A DNA stretch of 5,555 bases from positions 1 to 5,555 of the IMG/VR virus record IMGVR_UViG_3300045988_012393; one strand, 5' to 3'. Shown piece after piece: positions 1 to 5,555 of the stretch. The first letter of the stretch is position 1. Each line of letters opens with the position of its first letter. The notes under the pieces are model-generated. The model had not been told where the DNA came from. It searched no databases and worked only from the letters and a program-made list of their open reading frames with translations. Both the position numbers and the translations under genes were made by a program. Source of the stretch: a virus.

Positions 1-33
1 AAGAAGATGAGCAAAGCCAAAGGCGTATTTTGA
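1..33 (+). CDS. VP4: 3' end of the replication-initiator gene (last 10 codons KKMSKAKGVF plus TGA), a duplicate of 5479-5511
   Basis: Identical to the end of the 4492-5511 ORF and in the same frame, with TGA at 31-33. It is a partial copy present only because of the wrap-around. Confidence 0.85.
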   Translation, partial: KKMSKAKGVF

Positions 34-77
34 CACTTTGGTGTCACTCAGCCAAGTAACTATCAAGTATAGACTTG
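1..77. repeat. Terminal redundancy: exact copy of 5479-5555 (wrap-around of a circular genome)
   Basis: Base-by-base comparison: aagaagatgagcaaagccaaaggcgtattttgacactttggtgtcactcagccaagtaactatcaagtatagacttg occurs at both window ends. This implies a 5,478-nt circle. Confidence 0.97.
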
Positions 78-95
78 GCTGAGTGTTTTTTATTT
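45..95 (+). terminator. Rho-independent-type terminator downstream of Rep
   Basis: An 11-bp perfect stem pairs 47-57 (ctcagccaagt) with 73-83 (acttggctgag), extendable by a46-t84 and c45-g85. An inner 4-bp stem pairs 60-63 with 69-72 after a 2-nt bulge, leaving a 5-nt loop. The structure is followed by a T-run at 86-91 and ttt at 93-95. A separate 6-bp hairpin (31-36/41-46) contains the Rep stop codon. Confidence 0.75.
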
Positions 96-102
96 CATAT
101 TG

Positions 103-143
103 ACATATGCACGCGCGCACGTAATCGCGCACACGCGCACATG
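103..143. repeat. Two alternating purine/pyrimidine (CG/CA-type) tracts with Z-DNA-forming potential
   Basis: 103-123 (acatatgcacgcgcgcacgta, 21 nt) and 126-143 (cgcgcacacgcgcacatg, 18 nt) alternate R/Y strictly and are separated by 2 nt. CGCGCAC occurs three times (114-120, 126-132, 134-140). Confidence 0.8.
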
Positions 144-185
144 ATATTATTATTATTTTTATTATTTGTTGTAGTCGTAGTAGTA
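144..185. repeat. Pure A/T run followed by trinucleotide-periodic tracts (TTA/TTT then GTA/GTC); putative DNA-unwinding element
   Basis: 144-167 contains only A and T (24 nt), read as tta tta tta ttt tta tta ttt. 171-185 reads gta gtc gta gta gta. The DUE role is inferred only from position next to the iterons and DnaA boxes. Confidence 0.45.
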
Positions 186-190
186 GGGAG

Positions 191-205
191 TGTTGAAATG
201 TTGAA
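191..205 (+). repeat. Iteron pair 1: TGTTGAA at 191-197 and 199-205
   Basis: Direct tandem copies 8 nt apart. The same 7-mer recurs in pairs at 276-290 and 340-355. Confidence 0.8.
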
Positions 206-261
206 TACTATGAATTTTTATCCTTGGAACGATATTTTTTGGATTATTTTAATGTTGATAC

Positions 262-294
262 TTTTGTGGATAACTTGTTGAATTGTTGAAAGTG
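262..294 (+). repeat. Copy A of an imperfect ~33-nt direct repeat (DnaA box plus iteron pair 2 at 276-282 and 284-290)
   Basis: ttttgtggaTaacTtgttgaa-Ttgttgaaagtg aligns with 326-359, with about 4 mismatches and 1 indel. Confidence 0.85.
265..273 (-). promoter_or_regulatory. Perfect consensus DnaA box (TTATCCACA on the minus strand)
   Basis: The + strand reads tgtggataa at 265-273, the exact reverse complement of the 9-mer DnaA box consensus TTATCCACA. Confidence 0.5.
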
Positions 295-302
295 TAGCAA
301 TA

Positions 303-322
303 TGCACAAAACCATTTGTGCA
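303..322. other. 8-bp perfect hairpin/palindrome centred between the two 33-nt repeats
   Basis: tgcacaaa (303-310), loop acca, tttgtgca (315-322). Its core ACAAAACCATTT (306-317) recurs exactly at 552-563. Confidence 0.7.
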
Positions 323-325
323 ACT

Positions 326-359
326 TTTTGTGGAAAACCTGTTGAAAGTGTTGAAAGCG
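326..359 (+). repeat. Copy B of the imperfect ~33-nt direct repeat (DnaA-like box plus iteron pair 3 at 340-346 and 349-355)
   Basis: ttttgtggaAaacCtgttgaaaGtgttgaaagcg. TGTTGAAAG is perfectly tandem at 340-348 and 349-357, followed by a degenerate third unit cgttaaaaa. Confidence 0.85.
329..337 (-). promoter_or_regulatory. DnaA-box-like site (TTTTCCACA, fits the relaxed TTWTNCACA consensus)
   Basis: The + strand reads tgtggaaaa at 329-337, at the equivalent position in repeat copy B. Confidence 0.4.
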
Positions 360-408
360 TTAAAAACTGTGATTAAAGGCAGTCCGGCGAGCGAACCAAA
401 AAAGTCAC

Positions 409-463
409 GCCATGCTCTTCGTACGGCGCACCGCGCCTACCGCATGACATTCAAATGCATGGC
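409..463 (+). other. GC-rich structured element (outer 7-bp helix enclosing an 8-bp bulged hairpin); candidate ssDNA initiation signal or small structured RNA
   Basis: gccatgc (409-415) pairs with gcatggc (457-463). Inside, gta-c-ggcgc (421-429), loop acc, gcgcc-tac (433-440). An alternative helix pairs 404-410 with 442-448 (6 of 7). This is a GC island inside an otherwise AT-rich spacer. Confidence 0.4.
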
Positions 464-489
464 ACAGCTAAACTTTTTTCAAAAACCTC

Positions 490-518
490 TTGACAAACCC
501 TCTTTTTTATGATACAAA
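490..518 (+). promoter_or_regulatory. Candidate sigma70-type promoter for the gene array
   Basis: A perfect TTGACA lies at 490-495, followed by a 17-nt spacer and TACAAA at 513-518, preceded by TG at 510-511 (extended -10 form TGaTACAAA). It sits about 80 nt upstream of the first SD. The -10 lacks the final T. Confidence 0.4.
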
Positions 519-597
519 AAGAATAGTTAAACAGCACAGAAGTGCTATTTTACAAAACCATTTATACAAAATAACTTTTAGAAAGAGGTGAACCGCT

Positions 598-720
598 CTG
601 ACTCTCAAAGAAATTGACGCGCTGTTTAACAACATCCGCAAGATCTTGGCCATGCTGGACAAGATTTATCACATGTTGGAGGAAAAGGACAACAGATTCC
701 AGACCTTCAACGGAGACTGA
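598..720 (+). CDS. Hypothetical 40-aa helical peptide with a non-canonical CTG start
   Basis: The strongest SD in the window (aaagaggtga, 582-591) has CTG at 598 as the only near-cognate codon at correct spacing. The frame reads (M)TLKEIDALFNNIRKILAMLDKIYHMLEEKDNRFQTFNGD, with TGA at 718-720 abutting the next gene's SD. The sequence looks protein-like, unlike the overlapping 614 frame. Confidence 0.35.
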   Translation: MTLKEIDALFNNIRKILAMLDKIYHMLEEKDNRFQTFNGD

Positions 721-730
721 GAGGCTGAAA

Positions 731-952
731 ATGAAAACATGCAACGTAAGAGACCAGACCGATACGAACCTAATGAAGGAATTGACCCAAACCTACAAGG
801 GAATCGAGAGCGCATACAAGCTGCTACGACAGGCCGAAAAGTACGACGACGCAAAATTTTACCTTGACATGATATTCCGCAAAAAAGCAAAAGCAACAGA
901 AATCGAAGTGGAAATCCTCAGAAGGGAGGTCAACCATGGGAAAGAGGAGTAA
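731..952 (+). CDS. Hypothetical protein, 73 aa (no family recognised)
   Basis: ATG at 731 is preceded by GAGG (721-724) at 6-nt spacing. The product is charged and helical-looking: MKTCNVRDQTDTNLMKELTQTYKGIESAYKLLRQAEKYDDAKFYLDMIFRKKAKATEIEVEILRREVNHGKEE. The TTG-614 extension of this ORF looks non-coding. Confidence 0.55.
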   Translation: MKTCNVRDQTDTNLMKELTQTYKGIESAYKLLRQAEKYDDAKFYLDMIFRKKAKATEIEVEILRREVNHGKEE

Positions 953-1055
953 AGTCCGCAAATCCAAGGACGCAAAAATTTACAACAAGACCGCACGAAA
1001 AACCAAGGCCATCAACCTTGGGAGCGGCGCAATGAGAGGGGGAATCCGCCTGTGA
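936..1055 (+). CDS. Small highly basic DNA-binding/packaging protein (phiX174 J / gokushovirus ORF8-VP8 analogue), 39 aa
   Basis: GGGAGG (924-929) lies 6 nt before ATG 936. The product MGKRSKVRKSKDAKIYNKTARKTKAINLGSGAMRGGIRL has 13 K/R in 39 aa. The C-terminal MRGGIRL resembles the ...MRGGIRF ending I recall for chlamydiaphage ORF8. It overlaps the upstream ORF by 17 nt. Confidence 0.75.
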   Translation: MGKRSKVRKSKDAKIYNKTARKTKAINLGSGAMRGGIRL

Positions 1056-1150
1056 GCGCTGTATTCGCAAGCATGACAATGGCATTTCTCGCAGCGGGGT
1101 TCTACCTCGTCATTAACGCAATCAACATCATCAAAGACTGGTTCAAATAA
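1052..1150 (+). CDS. Hypothetical 32-aa hydrophobic (single transmembrane-like) peptide
   Basis: GTG 1052 overlaps the upstream stop as GTGA (1052-1055), and a purine-rich gagaggggga lies at 1034-1043. The product is (M)SAVFASMTMAFLAAGFYLVINAINIIKDWFK. Its stop at 1148-1150 overlaps the SD of the next gene. An alternative ATG at 1073 gives 25 aa. Confidence 0.45.
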   Translation: MSAVFASMTMAFLAAGFYLVINAINIIKDWFK

Positions 1151-1160
1151 GGAGAAAAAC

Positions 1161-1397
1161 ATGAACGTATACGGAATTTTCGATAGCTGTGTGATGGGCT
1201 ACATCACCATCTTCACCGAACGAGAAGACAAAGTGGCGGAGCGAAATTTTAAGATTGCGCTCACCGACGAACACAACATGATGAGCAAGACGCCGAGCGA
1301 CTACCGGCTGGTCAGACTGGCGAAATTCGACGAAAAGACCGGCCTGTTCGAAAACGAAAAGGAGAACATCTTTGATGGCATATCGCTCAGTAAGTAA
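1161..1397 (+). CDS. VP5: VP5-like small non-structural protein (microvirus ORF5 family), 78 aa
   Basis: AAGGAG (1149-1154) lies 6 nt before the ATG. The pattern YGIFDS...Y...F......A.R.F......N.M.K.P.DY.L..L..FDE.TG matches the conserved small gokushovirus protein as I remember it. Confidence 0.7.
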   Translation: MNVYGIFDSCVMGYITIFTEREDKVAERNFKIALTDEHNMMSKTPSDYRLVRLAKFDEKTGLFENEKENIFDGISLSK

Positions 1398-1860
1398 CTG
1401 GCGGCAGACCGCCACAGCAAAGCCGACCGAGGCCGGGGAAAGCGTAAGGCGCACGTACCTCTGGGAACGCAATGAAAAAGGCGAAAAGGTGCTGAGACTC
1501 GACCAGACCATTGACCAGCAAGCCGAGATAGACAGCTACCTCGAAGAAACCAAACTGGAAAACATCATCCGACGATCAAGCATCGACCCGGACATTGCAG
1601 CACGCATCAGGCCAGACATCGGTGGCGGCATCCAAGACTTTACCGAAGCACCGCAGAATCTGGCCGAACTCCAGAACATCATGATCCGAGCAGAGCAAAT
1701 CTGGGACGAGGTGCCGAAAGAAATCAAGCTCAAGTTTGACAACGACGTGGACAAATTCATCTCAAGTTTTGGAACTGTCGAATGGGCCAAAAATCTGGGC
1801 ATCTACCAAGAAAAACAGGTCGAAACCGAAGCAACTGAGGCAACGGAGGCCAAAGAATGA
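1375..1860 (+). CDS. VP3: VP3-like internal scaffolding protein, 161 aa from ATG 1375 (TTG 1372 is an alternative start)
   Basis: AAGGAG (1359-1364) lies upstream. The C-terminal block FTEAPQNLAELQNIMIRAEQIWDEVPKEIKLKFDNDVDKFISSF and the central ...EIDSYLEETKLENIIRR... fit the gokushovirus VP3 scaffold pattern. The stop overlaps the VP1 start as ATGA. Confidence 0.8.
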   Translation: MAYRSVSNWRQTATAKPTEAGESVRRTYLWERNEKGEKVLRLDQTIDQQAEIDSYLEETKLENIIRRSSIDPDIAARIRPDIGGGIQDFTEAPQNLAELQNIMIRAEQIWDEVPKEIKLKFDNDVDKFISSFGTVEWAKNLGIYQEKQVETEATEATEAKE

Positions 1861-3557
1861 ACAGAAACAAAGACGCAGGATTCAATCAGGTACCGCGCCT
1901 GGACATCACGCGAAGTCGATTCAAGCGGAGACAGGACGTCAAATTAACGCTGAACGCAGGACAGCTTATCCCGTTTTACGTGGACGAAGTACTTCCGGGC
2001 GACACCTTCAGCATTGACCAAGCGGCAATTATCCGCATGACGACGCCTATTTTCCCGGTTATGGATAACTGTCACATGGACATTTATTATTTTAATGTCC
2101 CATGTCGAATCCTTTGGAAAAACTTCAAACGGTTTATGGGCGAAAACGATACGGGGCCGTGGGCACAGACTCAGGAATACACCATTCCACAGGTCAAAGT
2201 AACCGGCACCGCAGAAAAGCCGGCACCTTATGAGGGCAGCATCCTTGACTACATGGGCATTCCAACCAAGGTAAGCAAGGGAGCAGACACGGCGTTCACC
2301 GTCAACGCACTGCCCATGCGAGCATATGCTATGATATGGCAGGAGTGGTTCAGAGACCAAAACGTGGATAATCCGGCCATCAACAGCGATGCAGACGCGA
2401 CCGTAAACTATACGGATGATGAAACCAAAGGCATGGACGCAGCAACACCGGATTTGGAATATATTCTTCAGAACGCATACACAGGCGGCAGACCTTTGCC
2501 GGTCAACAAATACCACGACTACTTTACATCAGCGCTGCCGAATCCGCAAAAAGCAGGACAGCCGGTTACAATTCCGCTAGGCGGAAATGCTAGCATTAAA
2601 CCATATGAAAACAACCTTAAAACGTTAAACCCGGATGACATTTTCTTCAGACAAAACAGCAGCAGCGCATCAAACCCATACCCGAAATCGGGTATCCAAT
2701 ATGAAGAAAACATTGGAACCTACACAATATCGGGTCCAACACAACCAACCGGTAGTGATGTAACAACCCATTATCTCATGGCAGACCTTAGCAGCGTAAA
2801 CGCAACGACCATCAACCAACTCCGACAGGCGTTTCAGGTTCAGAAATATTACGAAGAGCTGGCACGAGGCGGCAGCCGCTACCGTGAGATGATCTACTCG
2901 CTTTTCCACACCAAGATAAGCGATAAAACCGTACAGATTCCGGAGTATCTGGGCGGTACGCGTATCACCATCAATATGAGTCAGGTCATCCAGACCAGCG
3001 GCACAACCGCCGAAAGTCCGCAGGGCAACACCGCAGCCGTAAGCGTTACGCCGTACAACGGCAGTATGTTCACGAAGAGCTTTGAAGAGCACGGCTTTGT
3101 TATCGGAGTGTGCTGCATCAGGCATGACCACACGTATCAACAGGGACTCGAAAGGATGTGGAGTCGGAAAACCAATCTGGATTTCTATTACCCGGTCTTC
3201 GCAAATCTGGGAGAGCAAGCAATTTTGAAAAAGGAATTGTATCTGACCGGCACGGAATCCGACGAACAGGCGTTCGGGTATCAGGAGGCGTGGGCAGAAT
3301 ACCGAATGAAGCCGAACAGAATCAGCGGAAAATTCCGGAGCAACGCAACGGGAACGCTGGACAGTTGGCACTACGGCGACAACTACACGACGACGCCAAG
3401 CCTAAGTCAAGCATGGATGAAAGAGGGAGACTCCGAAATTCAGAGGACTCTGGCAGTGGACAACGAACCTCAGTTTATCATGGACACCATCATCGACAAC
3501 ACCAGCGTCAGACCGATGCCCATGTACAGCATTCCGGGACTCGTTGACCATCACTAA
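1857..3557 (+). CDS. VP1: Major capsid protein VP1 (Microviridae F-type jelly roll), 566 aa
   Basis: GGAGG (1845-1849) lies 7 nt upstream. The signature blocks are present: RSRFKRRQDVKLTLNAGQLIPFYVDEVLPGDTF, PIFPVMDN, DYFTSALPNPQK, TINQLRQAFQVQKYYEELARGGSRYREMIYSLF and IPEYLGG. Confidence 0.97.
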   Translation: MNRNKDAGFNQVPRLDITRSRFKRRQDVKLTLNAGQLIPFYVDEVLPGDTFSIDQAAIIRMTTPIFPVMDNCHMDIYYFNVPCRILWKNFKRFMGENDTGPWAQTQEYTIPQVKVTGTAEKPAPYEGSILDYMGIPTKVSKGADTAFTVNALPMRAYAMIWQEWFRDQNVDNPAINSDADATVNYTDDETKGMDAATPDLEYILQNAYTGGRPLPVNKYHDYFTSALPNPQKAGQPVTIPLGGNASIKPYENNLKTLNPDDIFFRQNSSSASNPYPKSGIQYEENIGTYTISGPTQPTGSDVTTHYLMADLSSVNATTINQLRQAFQVQKYYEELARGGSRYREMIYSLFHTKISDKTVQIPEYLGGTRITINMSQVIQTSGTTAESPQGNTAAVSVTPYNGSMFTKSFEEHGFVIGVCCIRHDHTYQQGLERMWSRKTNLDFYYPVFANLGEQAILKKELYLTGTESDEQAFGYQEAWAEYRMKPNRISGKFRSNATGTLDSWHYGDNYTTTPSLSQAWMKEGDSEIQRTLAVDNEPQFIMDTIIDNTSVRPMPMYSIPGLVDHH

Positions 3558-3572
3558 ATGACCATCACTAAA
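3545..3572 (+). repeat. Perfect 14-nt tandem duplication (tgaccatcactaaa x2) spanning the VP1 stop codon
   Basis: 3545-3558 equals 3559-3572. The first copy encodes the last VP1 codons (DHH) plus TAA at 3555-3557. Confidence 0.95.
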
Positions 3573-3585
3573 CAAGAAAGGGGGA

Positions 3586-3613
3586 AGCCCGGGCAAAACC
3601 CCGGGCTAATTTT
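3586..3613 (+). terminator. GC-rich hairpin plus short T-run between VP1 and VP2 (weak terminator/attenuator or translational element)
   Basis: agcccggg (3586-3593), loop caaaac, cccgggct (3600-3607), then aattt directly before ATG 3614. Confidence 0.45.
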
Positions 3614-4486
3614 ATGGGAATACTAGCCACATTCGGACTACCTCTCTTAAAAGCAGCAATACCAAGTCTTGTGGGAGCAGCAGCAAACAAGCTCTTTGGT
3701 ACAAGCGGAAGCTACGGACAGCAGGGGCAAGCTAACAGTCAAAGCAGCGGTTCGAGCTGGTCTCAAGGCACAAGCGACAGTTGGAGCACAAGCAGCAGCG
3801 GCACAAACGACGCTGTAAACAAAAGCATCGCAGCACTTGCAAACCAGCTAAGCCAAGGCAGCATGGCCGGACAGCAAAAATACAATCGAAATTCCATGCT
3901 CATGCAAATGGGCTACAACACGTTCGCTGCAATTCAGCAAGGCGTATACAATCACATCGAGCAGCAAACAGCAATGAGCTACAACACCGCAGAAGCCGCA
4001 AAAAACAGAGCATGGCAAGAGCAAATGAGTAACACGTCTTACCAAAGAGCAGTTGAGGACATGCGAAAAGCTGGCATCAACCCTATCTTAGCATACACAC
4101 AGGGCGGAGCAAGCACACCGAGCGGAGCGCAGGGAACAATCGGAAGCGCAAGTATGGGCATGGCATCCAGTAGCGCGCTGGGAGCAACGGCATTGCCAGG
4201 CATCAAACAGGACGGCAGCTGGAGCAGTCACAGTGAGGCATGGAGTCACGCAGAAAACGCAGCACAGAGCATCCAGCAAGCAATCATGTCGAGCAGCTCA
4301 AGCCCTGTCAGACTCAGGGGAGAAATGGAACGCATTGCAGAAACAGCAGTAGATGGAGCAATAAACCTTAAAGAAAAACTTGCAGCACTGCCGGTATCGG
4401 ACAAGGAAAGACGGAGAACCGCAGAAAACCTTGAAAGAGGACGGCGGCAAACAATCGGAATGGGAACAACCGGAAATTATTGGTAA
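3614..4486 (+). CDS. VP2: Minor capsid / DNA pilot protein VP2, 290 aa
   Basis: The N-terminus is hydrophobic and a Ser/Gly/Gln-rich stretch follows. The conserved core [27 protein letters not shown] is typical of gokushovirus VP2 pilot proteins. The gene sits directly after VP1. Confidence 0.93.
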
Positions 4487-4491
4487 CAAAA

Positions 4492-5511
4492 ATGGGATGC
4501 AACAAGCCGTTAATTCGGTTTTACGTACCTCACGACAGAGAGGCAAGTGGAAGAGTGTATTCACTTGCCTCTTTTAACGAGATACACAAGACCAAAATGA
4601 CATACGAAAACTTAATATACCGCAAAGATGTAATGTTGATACCATGCGGACAGTGTACAGGGTGCAGGCTCCGAAAACGAAAAGACTGGGCCACGCGGAT
4701 GGAGCTAGAAGCATACGGATACGACAAAGAAAGTGTCTGGTTTATCACACTAACATACGACGATGACCATGTACCAACGCAAGACACAAAAACAGGCGAA
4801 ATCTACAAAGGCGGCGTAAACGTCTGGAAAGGCGGCTCAGAGCGTCCAAGAACAACGCAAACACTAAGCGTAGAGGATACACAGCTCTTTATTAAAAGAC
4901 TAAGGAAGGCCGTCAGAGAGCCTCTAAGATACTTTTTAGCAGGAGAGTACGGGGACAACACGGCAAGGCCACACTACCACATGATACTGTATGGGTGGCA
5001 TCCGAACGACTTAAAGCCAATCCACAAGTTATCGAGACATGGACACTACACAAGTGATAAACTGGTCAAAATCTGGGGACAAGGTACAGTTGACATAGCA
5101 CAAGCAACACCAGAAACCTATAATTATGTTGCAGGTTATGTGACCAAAAAGCTATACGGCAACGACAAAAAGCGTTACCAAAAAATGGGTTTAATACCAC
5201 CATTTTGCACAATGAGCCGAAAGCCGGGACTCGGAGACAAATGGTTTCAAAACCATCAAGATCGACTCTGGCAGCAGGGATACATACAGCTTACCAACGG
5301 CAAGAGAGCAGCCATACCGGAATACTACTGGCGAAAACTGGAAGCGGAAAACCCTGAAAAAGCATGGAGAATCAAACAGTATCGGCAGGAAAAAGCCATT
5401 GCGTCCCTAATCGAAAGAAACGCGGAAACAGATAAATCATACGCAGAGCAGCTAAAGGACAAGGAAGCATCCATGTCCAAGAAGATGAGCAAAGCCAAAG
5501 GCGTATTTTGA
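4492..5511 (+). CDS. VP4: Replication initiation protein VP4 (HUH rolling-circle endonuclease, phiX174 A-like), 339 aa from ATG 4492
   Basis: The protein starts MGCNKPL and has a CxxCxxC cluster (PCGQCTGCRLRKRKDW). The three RCR motifs are present: motif 1 FITLTYDD, motif 2 PHYHMILYG (HUH), and motif 3 YVAGYVTKK (YxxxY, two catalytic tyrosines). The track's TTG 4480 start is less likely. The ATG lies 5 nt after the VP2 stop with no clear SD. Confidence 0.96.
   Translation: MGCNKPLIRFYVPHDREASGRVYSLASFNEIHKTKMTYENLIYRKDVMLIPCGQCTGCRLRKRKDWATRMELEAYGYDKESVWFITLTYDDDHVPTQDTKTGEIYKGGVNVWKGGSERPRTTQTLSVEDTQLFIKRLRKAVREPLRYFLAGEYGDNTARPHYHMILYGWHPNDLKPIHKLSRHGHYTSDKLVKIWGQGTVDIAQATPETYNYVAGYVTKKLYGNDKKRYQKMGLIPPFCTMSRKPGLGDKWFQNHQDRLWQQGYIQLTNGKRAAIPEYYWRKLEAENPEKAWRIKQYRQEKAIASLIERNAETDKSYAEQLKDKEASMSKKMSKAKGVF
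4539..4572 (+). other. 11-bp perfect inverted repeat (hairpin, 12-nt loop) inside the 5' end of the Rep gene
   Basis: agaggcaagtg (4539-4549) pairs with cacttgcctct (4562-4572). The loop is gaagagtgtatt, and ttt follows at 4573-4575. Confidence 0.85.
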
Positions 5512-5555
5512 CACTTTGGTGTCACTCAGCCAAGTAACTATCAAGTATAGACTTG
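5479..5555. repeat. Second copy of the 77-nt terminal redundancy (Rep 3' end, stop-codon hairpin, first part of the terminator)
   Basis: Identical to 1-77. Confidence 0.97.

Follow-up and report, generated by a model that had tools for sequence, protein, structure and literature searches.

A 225-base noncoding stretch at positions 143-367 of a gokushovirus genome, located between VP4 and the small open reading frames (ORFs), is proposed to be a self-contained, host-factor-dependent cassette modeled on the Firmicute chromosomal origin (oriC), through which the initiator DnaA would open the double-stranded replicative form. The probability of this reading was put at roughly 0.6. The DNA analyzed was IMG/VR virus record IMGVR_UViG_3300045988_012393, positions 1 to 5,555 (the window), which corresponds to a circular genome of 5478 nt plus a 77-nt overlap at its termini. 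An earlier note on this DNA had picked out two DnaA boxes, at 265-273 and 329-337, and suggested that the phage might recruit DnaA for complementary-strand synthesis, replicative form replication, or transcriptional control. DnaA recruitment was retained as the best explanation, operating via an oriC-type module and not via a conserved perfect box; action on the double-stranded replicative form is favored among the three roles, and complementary-strand synthesis at an ABC primosome site is disfavored. DnaA is the best candidate for the binding protein, with the core of boxes and trios at 143-207 as the decisive evidence and with the two flagged boxes accessory and variable.

The flagged boxes and a commoner repeat

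The sequence, read directly, agrees with the description of the two boxes. TGTGGATAA (265-273) is the exact complement of the DnaA box consensus TTATCCACA, and TGTGGAAAA (329-337) is the complement of TTTTCCACA, which fits TTWTNCACA. Both were correctly placed inside a duplicated unit of 21 nt (262-282 and 326-346, 64 nt apart, 90% identity). A scan against shuffled controls showed near-consensus DnaA boxes to be over-represented in the window, with 6 matches to TTATCCACA at no more than 1 mismatch against 1.11 expected (6 reached in 0 of 200 shuffles) and 4 matches to TTWTNCACA against 0.53 expected (4 reached in 1 of 200). Five coding 9-mers in VP1 and VP4 add to this over-representation, four having 1 mismatch each to TTATCCACA (2029-2037, 2060-2068, 2363-2371, and 2902-2910; one also fits TTWTNCACA) and the fifth fitting TTWTNCACA only (5203-5211).

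What had been overlooked is that the flagged boxes are G-variants of a far commoner repeat, TGTTGAA(A), with starts at 191, 199, 253, 276, 284, 340, and 349 and a degenerate copy at 358, on one strand throughout. Approximately 11 TGT(T/G)GAA repeats were counted between 191 and 366, all in the same direction. The flagged boxes belong to an element that is strongly conserved and probably functional.

Match to Firmicute unwinding modules

The basal unwinding system of Bacillus subtilis and other bacteria comprises a pair of DnaA boxes that a short G/C spacer separates from DnaA-trios (3'-GAT-5'), with an AT-rich region beyond the trios (PMC8287927), and TnnT repeats opposite the trios form the DnaD recognition element (PMC10201434). 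The trio of Clostridioides difficile is the complement of TAGTAGTAATAGTAGTAGGTG (PMC7561715). The core of the cassette (Table 1) was compared with this arrangement element by element. A run of at least 3 consecutive trios with the consensus 3'-GAT-5', as defined previously (PMC8287927), is present, and the three trios nearest to the boxes are all TAG. The GGAG spacer is followed by tandem boxes offset by 8 nt, oriented as TGTGGATAA and lying on the 3' side of the TAG strand. The AT-rich element lies beyond the trios, where 144-173 is the least stable 20-, 30-, and 40-nt duplex genome-wide; the free energy (dG) of the AT-rich 30-mer is -27.0 compared to a genome mean of -40.5 (standard deviation, 3.4), i.e., approximately 4 standard deviations below. 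The complement of the trio run, CTACTACTACGACTA, bears TnnT repeats resembling the DnaD recognition element.

Chromosomal modules were taken from 80 Firmicute dnaA loci found in metagenomes by a scan with B. subtilis DnaA; these are mostly from Bacilli, and the oriC of a confirmed phage host is not among them. Locus L380, whose DnaA matches the B. subtilis query at 100% identity, is laid out as an AT-rich region, TAGTAGAAGTAATAGTAG, GGCC, and the boxes TGTGGATT and TGTGGATAA. The corresponding layout in the window is an AT-rich region, TAGTCGTAGTAGTAG, GGAG, and the boxes TGTTGAAA and TGTTGAATA. Locus L420 reads TAGTCGTAGTAGTAG, GGGC, CCTGAATA, and TGTGGATAA, and L448 reads TAGTCGTAGTCGTAGTAG, TGCC, TGTGAAAA, and TGTGGAAAA, and L405 (GGGC, TGTTAATA, and TGTTAGTAA) is an example of some modules whose boxes are as degenerate as those of the window. 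In 19 further Firmicute dnaA-dnaN regions, the order, strand, 4-nt spacer, and 8-nt box offset were as in the window and L380. The identical trio string TAGTCGTAGTAGTAG was found in the dnaA-dnaN regions of L408, L411, L416, and L420, and the chromosomal 4-nt spacer is G/C rich (GGCC, GGGC, GTGC, or TGCC) in 18 of 20 modules.

The resemblance was quantified with a profile hidden Markov model built from the 20 chromosomal dnaA-dnaN modules only and searched with nhmmer. This profile matched the window at 161-204 on the + strand with a score of 20.4 (E = 2.1e-6), compared to best scores of 6.1 for 300 whole-window shuffles and 4.9 for 300 shuffles of the noncoding region; overall, the cassette therefore matches the chromosomal modules in sequence. 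The relatives KT264799 and MG945423 scored 19.4 and 18.3, respectively, and no match was obtained for the cultured gokushoviruses Chp2, phiMH2K, and SpV4. The cassette sits in a 5478-nt phage genome and not beside dnaA or dnaN, and no dnaA gene was found in the phage loci L001 to L379. Judging from these data, the cassette is expected to work like a basal unwinding system, but it is not a chromosomal origin.

Conservation and exchange of the cassette

The whole cassette was found in 163 gokushovirus genomes, drawn from two IMG/VR pattern scans and from GenBank records. Its consensus is TATA(T)AACTTGTTG, (TAG)5, a 4-nt G-rich spacer, two boxes, a variable 45 nt, four boxes, a hairpin, TGTGCAAC, and four boxes, the element TATA(T)AACTTGTTG being the conserved 3' end of the AT-rich block in relatives. 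The trio run is at least 90% conserved across cassettes. The spacer varies between GGAG, GCAA, AGGC, and GGGC, and the trio-proximal boxes read TGTGGAAAA and AGTTGAAAA in many relatives. The best-conserved stretch is the second distal array (329-366), and the region 251-367 is 80 to 86% identical in many gokushoviruses having no other DNA-level match to the window.

The cassette is approximately 80% identical even in clades that share only 41% (VP1) and 36% (VP4) protein identity with the window, and for this reason a host factor is likelier than the phage Rep to be the binding partner. The cassette variant of the window, including the perfect box, was also found in genomes with only about 50% VP1 identity, which indicates that the cassette has been exchanged between lineages. 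Plasmid relatives of the cassette were searched for, and none was found. A match in a viral contig of 148 kb (L068) lay inside a gene, as did 25 of the 30 matches in bacterial genomes, and these were dismissed as chance.

The perfect box itself is not conserved. At the homologous position, relatives carry TGTTGAAAA (97), TGTGGATAA (30), or TGTGGAAAA (11), and since most have TGTTGAAAA there, the perfect box is lineage restricted. At the second flagged position (329-337), the counts were 65 for TGTGGAAAA and 62 for TGTTGAAAA. The rule behind these counts is that either G or T can stand at box position 4. Furthermore, both flagged boxes lie in the distal arrays, which are missing from the smallest relative, KT264799.1 (5179 nt; cassette at 440-505). 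This natural minimal cassette retains the AT-rich block, AACTTGTTG, (TAG)5, GGAG, and two boxes and is without any distal array.

The hairpin between the two distal arrays is replaced in relatives by one of a different sequence, TTCGTCA-AAA-TGACGAA. Convincing covariation was not found among relatives for this hairpin, as all four combinations occur at the variable pair. The segment ACAAAACCATTTGTGCAA (306-323) recurs with 89% identity as ACAAAACCATTTATACAA (552-569), 246 nt downstream and near the first ribosome-binding site.

Orientation of the cassette and a separate hairpin

The orientation of the cassette was scored in 160 genomes and was the same as that of the genes in 128 and opposite in 32. 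In one clade it is inverted and located between VP2 and VP4. L042 and L082 differ from close relatives by an inversion of the cassette alone, with the breakpoints exactly at the borders with GCGCAC/GTGCGC GC-rich tracts on both sides. Longer tracts similar to that at 107-142 flank the cassette in most relatives; alternating composition of this kind is usually associated with Z-DNA. A site-specific invertible element is not supported, as the junctions carry just short GC-rich inverted repeats, and the flips are limited to the L042/L082 pair, L005, L006, and the opposite-orientation clade, no switching being seen between near-identical genomes.

The hairpin at 45-85 behaves differently. Its stem covaries among relatives around the conserved loop CTATCAAG(T/A)A, and its orientation is constant in all genomes of the window's group, L042 and L082 included. 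The complement of the loop, TACTTGATAG, contains the phiX174 nick-site core, ACTTG^ATA. An intergenic hairpin in the Chlamydia phage Chp2 (L465, approximately 2900-2945) has the loop TCTACTTGATC on the coding strand, while in the window's group this loop motif is on the noncoding strand. The hairpin at 45-85 may be the VP4 origin, which would raise the question of which strand is packaged, or it may simply be the VP4 terminator.

Since the cassette flips and the hairpin does not, it was concluded that the cassette does not serve as the Rep origin but exists in addition to whatever VP4 uses. A rolling-circle Rep origin has a fixed orientation relative to rep and iterons that covary with Rep. 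The repeats of the cassette are unchanged across VP4 identities of 36 to 100%, and Rep iterons or a nick site within the cassette were ruled out by the inversions together with these unchanged repeats.

Box composition and points against the DnaA reading

The 122 unique cassettes contain 1079 boxes, of which 930 have T at position 4, 147 have G, 2 have A, and none has C. The identity of this position in genuine DnaA arrays was examined for comparison. In IMG/VR viral contigs, the box 2 nt after a canonical TGTGGATAA has G in 141 cases, T in 7, and A or C in none, and boxes within 45 nt of a canonical box have G in 368, T in 9, and A or C in none; the background was T 36, A 34, C 17, and G 13. 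The 80 Firmicute oriC regions gave G 427, T 89, C 39, and A 25. Thus, T is the tolerated variant at position 4 in true DnaA arrays. The search pattern for clostridial origins, TGTNNAWAA, also accepts T (PMC7561715 supplement). In the cassettes, G is enriched at the trio-proximal box (by a rough tally, approximately 43% compared to 14% overall).

Several points nevertheless weigh against the action of DnaA on the cassette. The main weakness is that 86% of the cassette boxes have T where canonical boxes have a near-invariant G (C at position 6 of TTATCCACA), and an array dominated by T is unusual. The published rule of a box with no more than 2 mismatches to TTATCCACA within 16 bp of the trios does not hold in the window, where TGTTGAAAT and TGTTGAATA both depart from the perfect box TTATCCACA at 3 positions and from TGTGNAWAA at 2; it holds in approximately 43% of cassette variants, which have TGTGGAAAA (1 mismatch) at this place, again by a rough tally. 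All boxes run in the same direction, and several starts are only 8 to 9 nt apart. The actual host may or may not use TGTTGAAA boxes in its oriC, the origins compared being mostly from Bacilli. In addition, microviruses use Rep-driven rolling-circle replication, and we know of no need for DnaA in this family.

Alternative explanations

The best surviving alternative is a DnaA sink or sensor, in which the cassette binds DnaA without ever firing as an origin. Hundreds of copies of the replicative form, each with about ten boxes, would titrate DnaA in the manner of datA or the B. subtilis DnaA-box clusters; host initiation could be stalled as a result, or the level of DnaA-ATP could set phage gene expression. 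Many same-direction boxes of mixed affinity would suit this role, as would the tolerance of either orientation. B. subtilis DnaA-box clusters outside oriC are reported to control initiation (PMC3245932), and the box-rich noncoding region of the Ruminiclostridium locus L129 is not next to dnaA. Titration, however, requires neither trios, nor a G-rich spacer, nor a least stable AT block placed as in an unwinding module, and KT264799 has retained the unwinding core and dropped the box arrays, the opposite of what is expected for a sink. This explanation was judged unlikely.

About as unlikely is that the TGTTGAA repeats bind another protein (the VP4 Rep, a small phage protein, or a host regulator such as a response regulator or Spo0A) and that the resemblance to oriC is coincidental. 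The dominance of T over G at position 4 would be accounted for, and direct repeats at 8 to 12 nt are typical of response regulators and of the Rep loci of rolling-circle plasmids. The AACTTG directly 5' of the trios, which resembles the phiX174 nick-site core, was also counted in its favor. Against it, the repeats remain constant while VP4 identity spans 36% to 100%, the cassette flips relative to rep while the separate covarying hairpin is fixed, the profile match is beyond chance, and T is the specific variant that true DnaA arrays tolerate. Spo0A in particular was rejected, as the CGAA core of its 0A box (TGNCGAA) occurs in 0 of the 1079 boxes and C is never found at position 4.

A single-strand initiation site of the ABC primosome type, in which the folded packaged strand would present a double-stranded DnaA box and DnaA would then load helicase and primase for complementary-strand synthesis, was considered very improbable. 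A perfect box is present, arms at 262-272 and 301-311 can pair at 10 of 11 positions, and such sites are known on plasmids. The proposal of the earlier note to this effect is disfavored: all boxes are direct repeats without an inverted partner, so that no double-stranded box can form in a hairpin, single-stranded folding is no better than that of shuffles for both strands (z = -0.09 and +0.41), the perfect box and its potential pairing are missing from most relatives, and neither the genes nor the putative Rep hairpin have a fixed orientation with respect to the cassette. The two orientations, the lack of a stable single-strand fold, and the same-direction boxes argue for action on the double-stranded replicative form. 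A noncoding RNA or structured single strand was rejected, as both the cassette and the block at 366-490 fold no better than shuffles.

Genome context and host

The features of the window are collected in Table 1; every gene lies on the + strand. The nearest GenBank records are the gut "Gokushovirus WZ-2015a" genomes (88% identity).

Table 1. Positions of the cassette elements, neighboring hairpin, and genes in the window
Feature	Positions	Strand	Remarks
VP4 (Rep)	stop at 31	+	
Noncoding region	32-600		
13-bp hairpin	45-85		just 3' of VP4 stop codon; T-run at 86-92
GC-rich alternating purine/pyrimidine tract, GCACGCGCGCACG ... CGCGCACACGCGCAC	107-142		left flank of cassette
AT-rich block, GATATTATTATTATTTTTATTATTTGTTG	143-171	+	resembles DNA unwinding element; directly abuts trio run
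TAG TCG TAG TAG TAG	172-186	+	resembles DnaA-trios (3'-GAT-5' as read on shown strand)
4-nt G-rich spacer, GGAG	187-190	+	
Trio-proximal tandem boxes, TGTTGAAAT (191-199) and TGTTGAATA (199-207)	191-207	+	starts 8 nt apart
Variable spacer from core to distal arrays	208-252	+	poorly conserved, several sequence types
First distal array, TGTTGATAC (253-261), TGTGGATAA (265-273), TGTTGAATT (276-284), TGTTGAAAG (284-292)	253-292	+	
8-bp hairpin, TGCACAAA-ACCA-TTTGTGCA	303-322	+	between the two arrays
Conserved TGTGCAAC	317-325		box-like 9-mer overlapping 3' arm of internal hairpin
Second distal array, TGTGGAAAA (329-337), TGTTGAAAG (340-348, 349-357), degenerate CGTTAAAAA (358-366)	329-366	+	
Small ORFs	~600 to 1400	+	
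VP3	1372-1860	+	
VP1	1857-3557	+	
VP2	3614-4486	+	

Several signals point to a Firmicute host. A promoter of the Gram-positive type (TTGACA, 17 nt, TRTG, TACAAA) lies at 490-518, 5' of the small ORFs, and the window has strong Shine-Dalgarno sites. Clostridiales hosts were predicted for gut gokushoviruses from CRISPR spacers (PMC10159846). Among 185,579 species genomes, noncoding matches of the array type were found only in three Oscillospirales chromosomes, those of Ruminiclostridium, Hydrogeniiclostridium, and Ruminococcus. The bacterial arrays in L129 (2300-2980, a Ruminiclostridium metagenome-assembled genome [MAG]), L152 (1215-1250), and L154 (7800-7871) have the extended box TGT(G/T)GAAAAC, as in the cassette, and a 27-nt segment of L152 is identical to the 3' end of the phage cassette. 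In L129, approximately 12 boxes, pointing both ways, lie between a DAHP synthase gene under T-box control and an ORF of 88 amino acids; the array is not near dnaA and is therefore uninformative as to how the host origin looks. Related microvirus contigs were present in two MAG bins, of Prevotella and Bacteroides. A host in these genera was rejected, the MAG-bin evidence being weak and contradicted by the Shine-Dalgarno and promoter usage of the phage.

A second conserved noncoding block lies at 372-497 and is approximately 80% identical in the otherwise unalignable MG945135 and KT264798. It gave no Rfam match, and the downstream block 366-490 showed no significant fold compared to shuffles (z = -0.49). 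A possible 40-codon ORF at 598-720 follows a good ribosome-binding site (AAAGAGG); none of the start codons ATG, GTG, and TTG occurs where one would be expected, a CTG is present at 598, and the ORF is not in the program-made ORF list. Scans of Rfam gave no match at E <= 1, and none was found for tRNA or tmRNA; sigma-70 promoters and terminators were not enriched. A full-text literature search for the repeat motif returned primer sequences only.

Discussion

The mode of action that we infer for the cassette begins with host DnaA-ATP, which would bind the tandem boxes at 191-207, assisted by approximately nine further boxes of low or high affinity that include the two flagged ones. DnaA would then oligomerize from the tandem boxes onto the adjoining TAG-trio strand (172-186), and the oligomer would open the AT-rich block (143-171) next door. 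The TnnT repeats on the complementary strand would become available to DnaD, leading to loading of the replicative helicase. The predicted outcome is DnaA-gated, theta-type replication of the replicative form, for amplification or for plasmid-like maintenance. In a possible variant, it is the region adjoining the Rep-type hairpin that would be opened.

In the literature searched, no paper was found to link Microviridae with DnaA boxes, DnaA-trios, or oriC. More tentatively, and with the odds somewhat against it, we hypothesized that gut gokushoviruses of Clostridia carry a portable mini-oriC, so that their double-stranded form is, besides rolling-circle replication, also a DnaA-controlled, cell-cycle-coupled episome. 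If true, this would supply a molecular basis for long-term, nonintegrated persistence of microviruses in the gut, and it would mean that the basal unwinding system can be captured and exchanged between phages as a module of 60 to 225 nt in either orientation. A chromosome-type, DnaA-dependent opening module would in itself add to a rolling-circle family a second replication mode tied to the initiation potential of the host, and it would supply a testable mechanism for the plasmid-like carrier state of other gokushoviruses (PMC7062461). Microviruses rank among the most abundant human gut phages, accounting for 52% of mean relative abundance in one infant-gut study (PMC10159846), and the replication and persistence of gut lineages are almost undescribed. 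The more than 160 natural variants of the minimal box-trio module, which include a deletion to the core and inversions, also form a data set on which features the bacterial unwinding system requires.

Comparison with known systems

The phiX174-type rolling-circle origin comes from the same phage family; it is a 30-nt ori nicked at CAACTTG^ATA. Its likeness to the DNA described here is that ACTTG occurs in the cassette (AACTTGTTG in relatives) and, on the complement, in the hairpin loop at 45-85. The difference is that inversion within the window's group affects the cassette and not the hairpin. An ABC primosome site requires the box to be inside a hairpin, which is not so in the cassette.

The origins of P1 (oriR), pSC101, F, and RK2 resemble the cassette in being parts of mobile replicons whose DnaA boxes recruit the host initiator. 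They differ in pairing these boxes with iterons for a Rep initiator of their own, and to our knowledge they have not been described with trios.

Likenesses were also found in double-stranded DNA phage contigs from IMG/VR (L166, L209, L212, L225/L248, L236, and L246), in which (TAG)n, a G/C spacer, and TGTGGAWAA occur as in the cassette and are followed by box arrays. These loci were located by a pattern of trios plus one box, and only the additional boxes are independent evidence. The arrayed boxes are 11 nt apart and include the variants TGTTGATAA, TGTTAAAAA, and TGTGCAAAA, and the module in L166 adjoins a gene for a DnaB-type helicase. In contrast to the cassette, canonical boxes dominate, and the genomes are those of large tailed phages. 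In L233 and L191/L203, also from IMG/VR, (TAG)n, the G/C spacer, and TGTGGAWAA likewise precede clusters of DnaA boxes. Unwinding modules like that of oriC may be widespread in phage replication regions.

The Firmicute oriC, represented by incC of B. subtilis (DnaA boxes 6 and 7, trios, and an AT-rich 27-mer) and oriC2 of C. difficile, differs in several respects. The cassette belongs to a single-stranded DNA phage of 5.5 kb and has no neighboring dnaA; most of its boxes read TGTTGAAA instead of TGTGGATAA, its accessory boxes all run in one direction, and it is mobile and occurs in either orientation. The two are alike in the order and strand of their elements, in TAG-type trios that include the TCG variant, in the 4-nt spacer and the 8-nt box offset, and in the AT-rich region beyond the trios.

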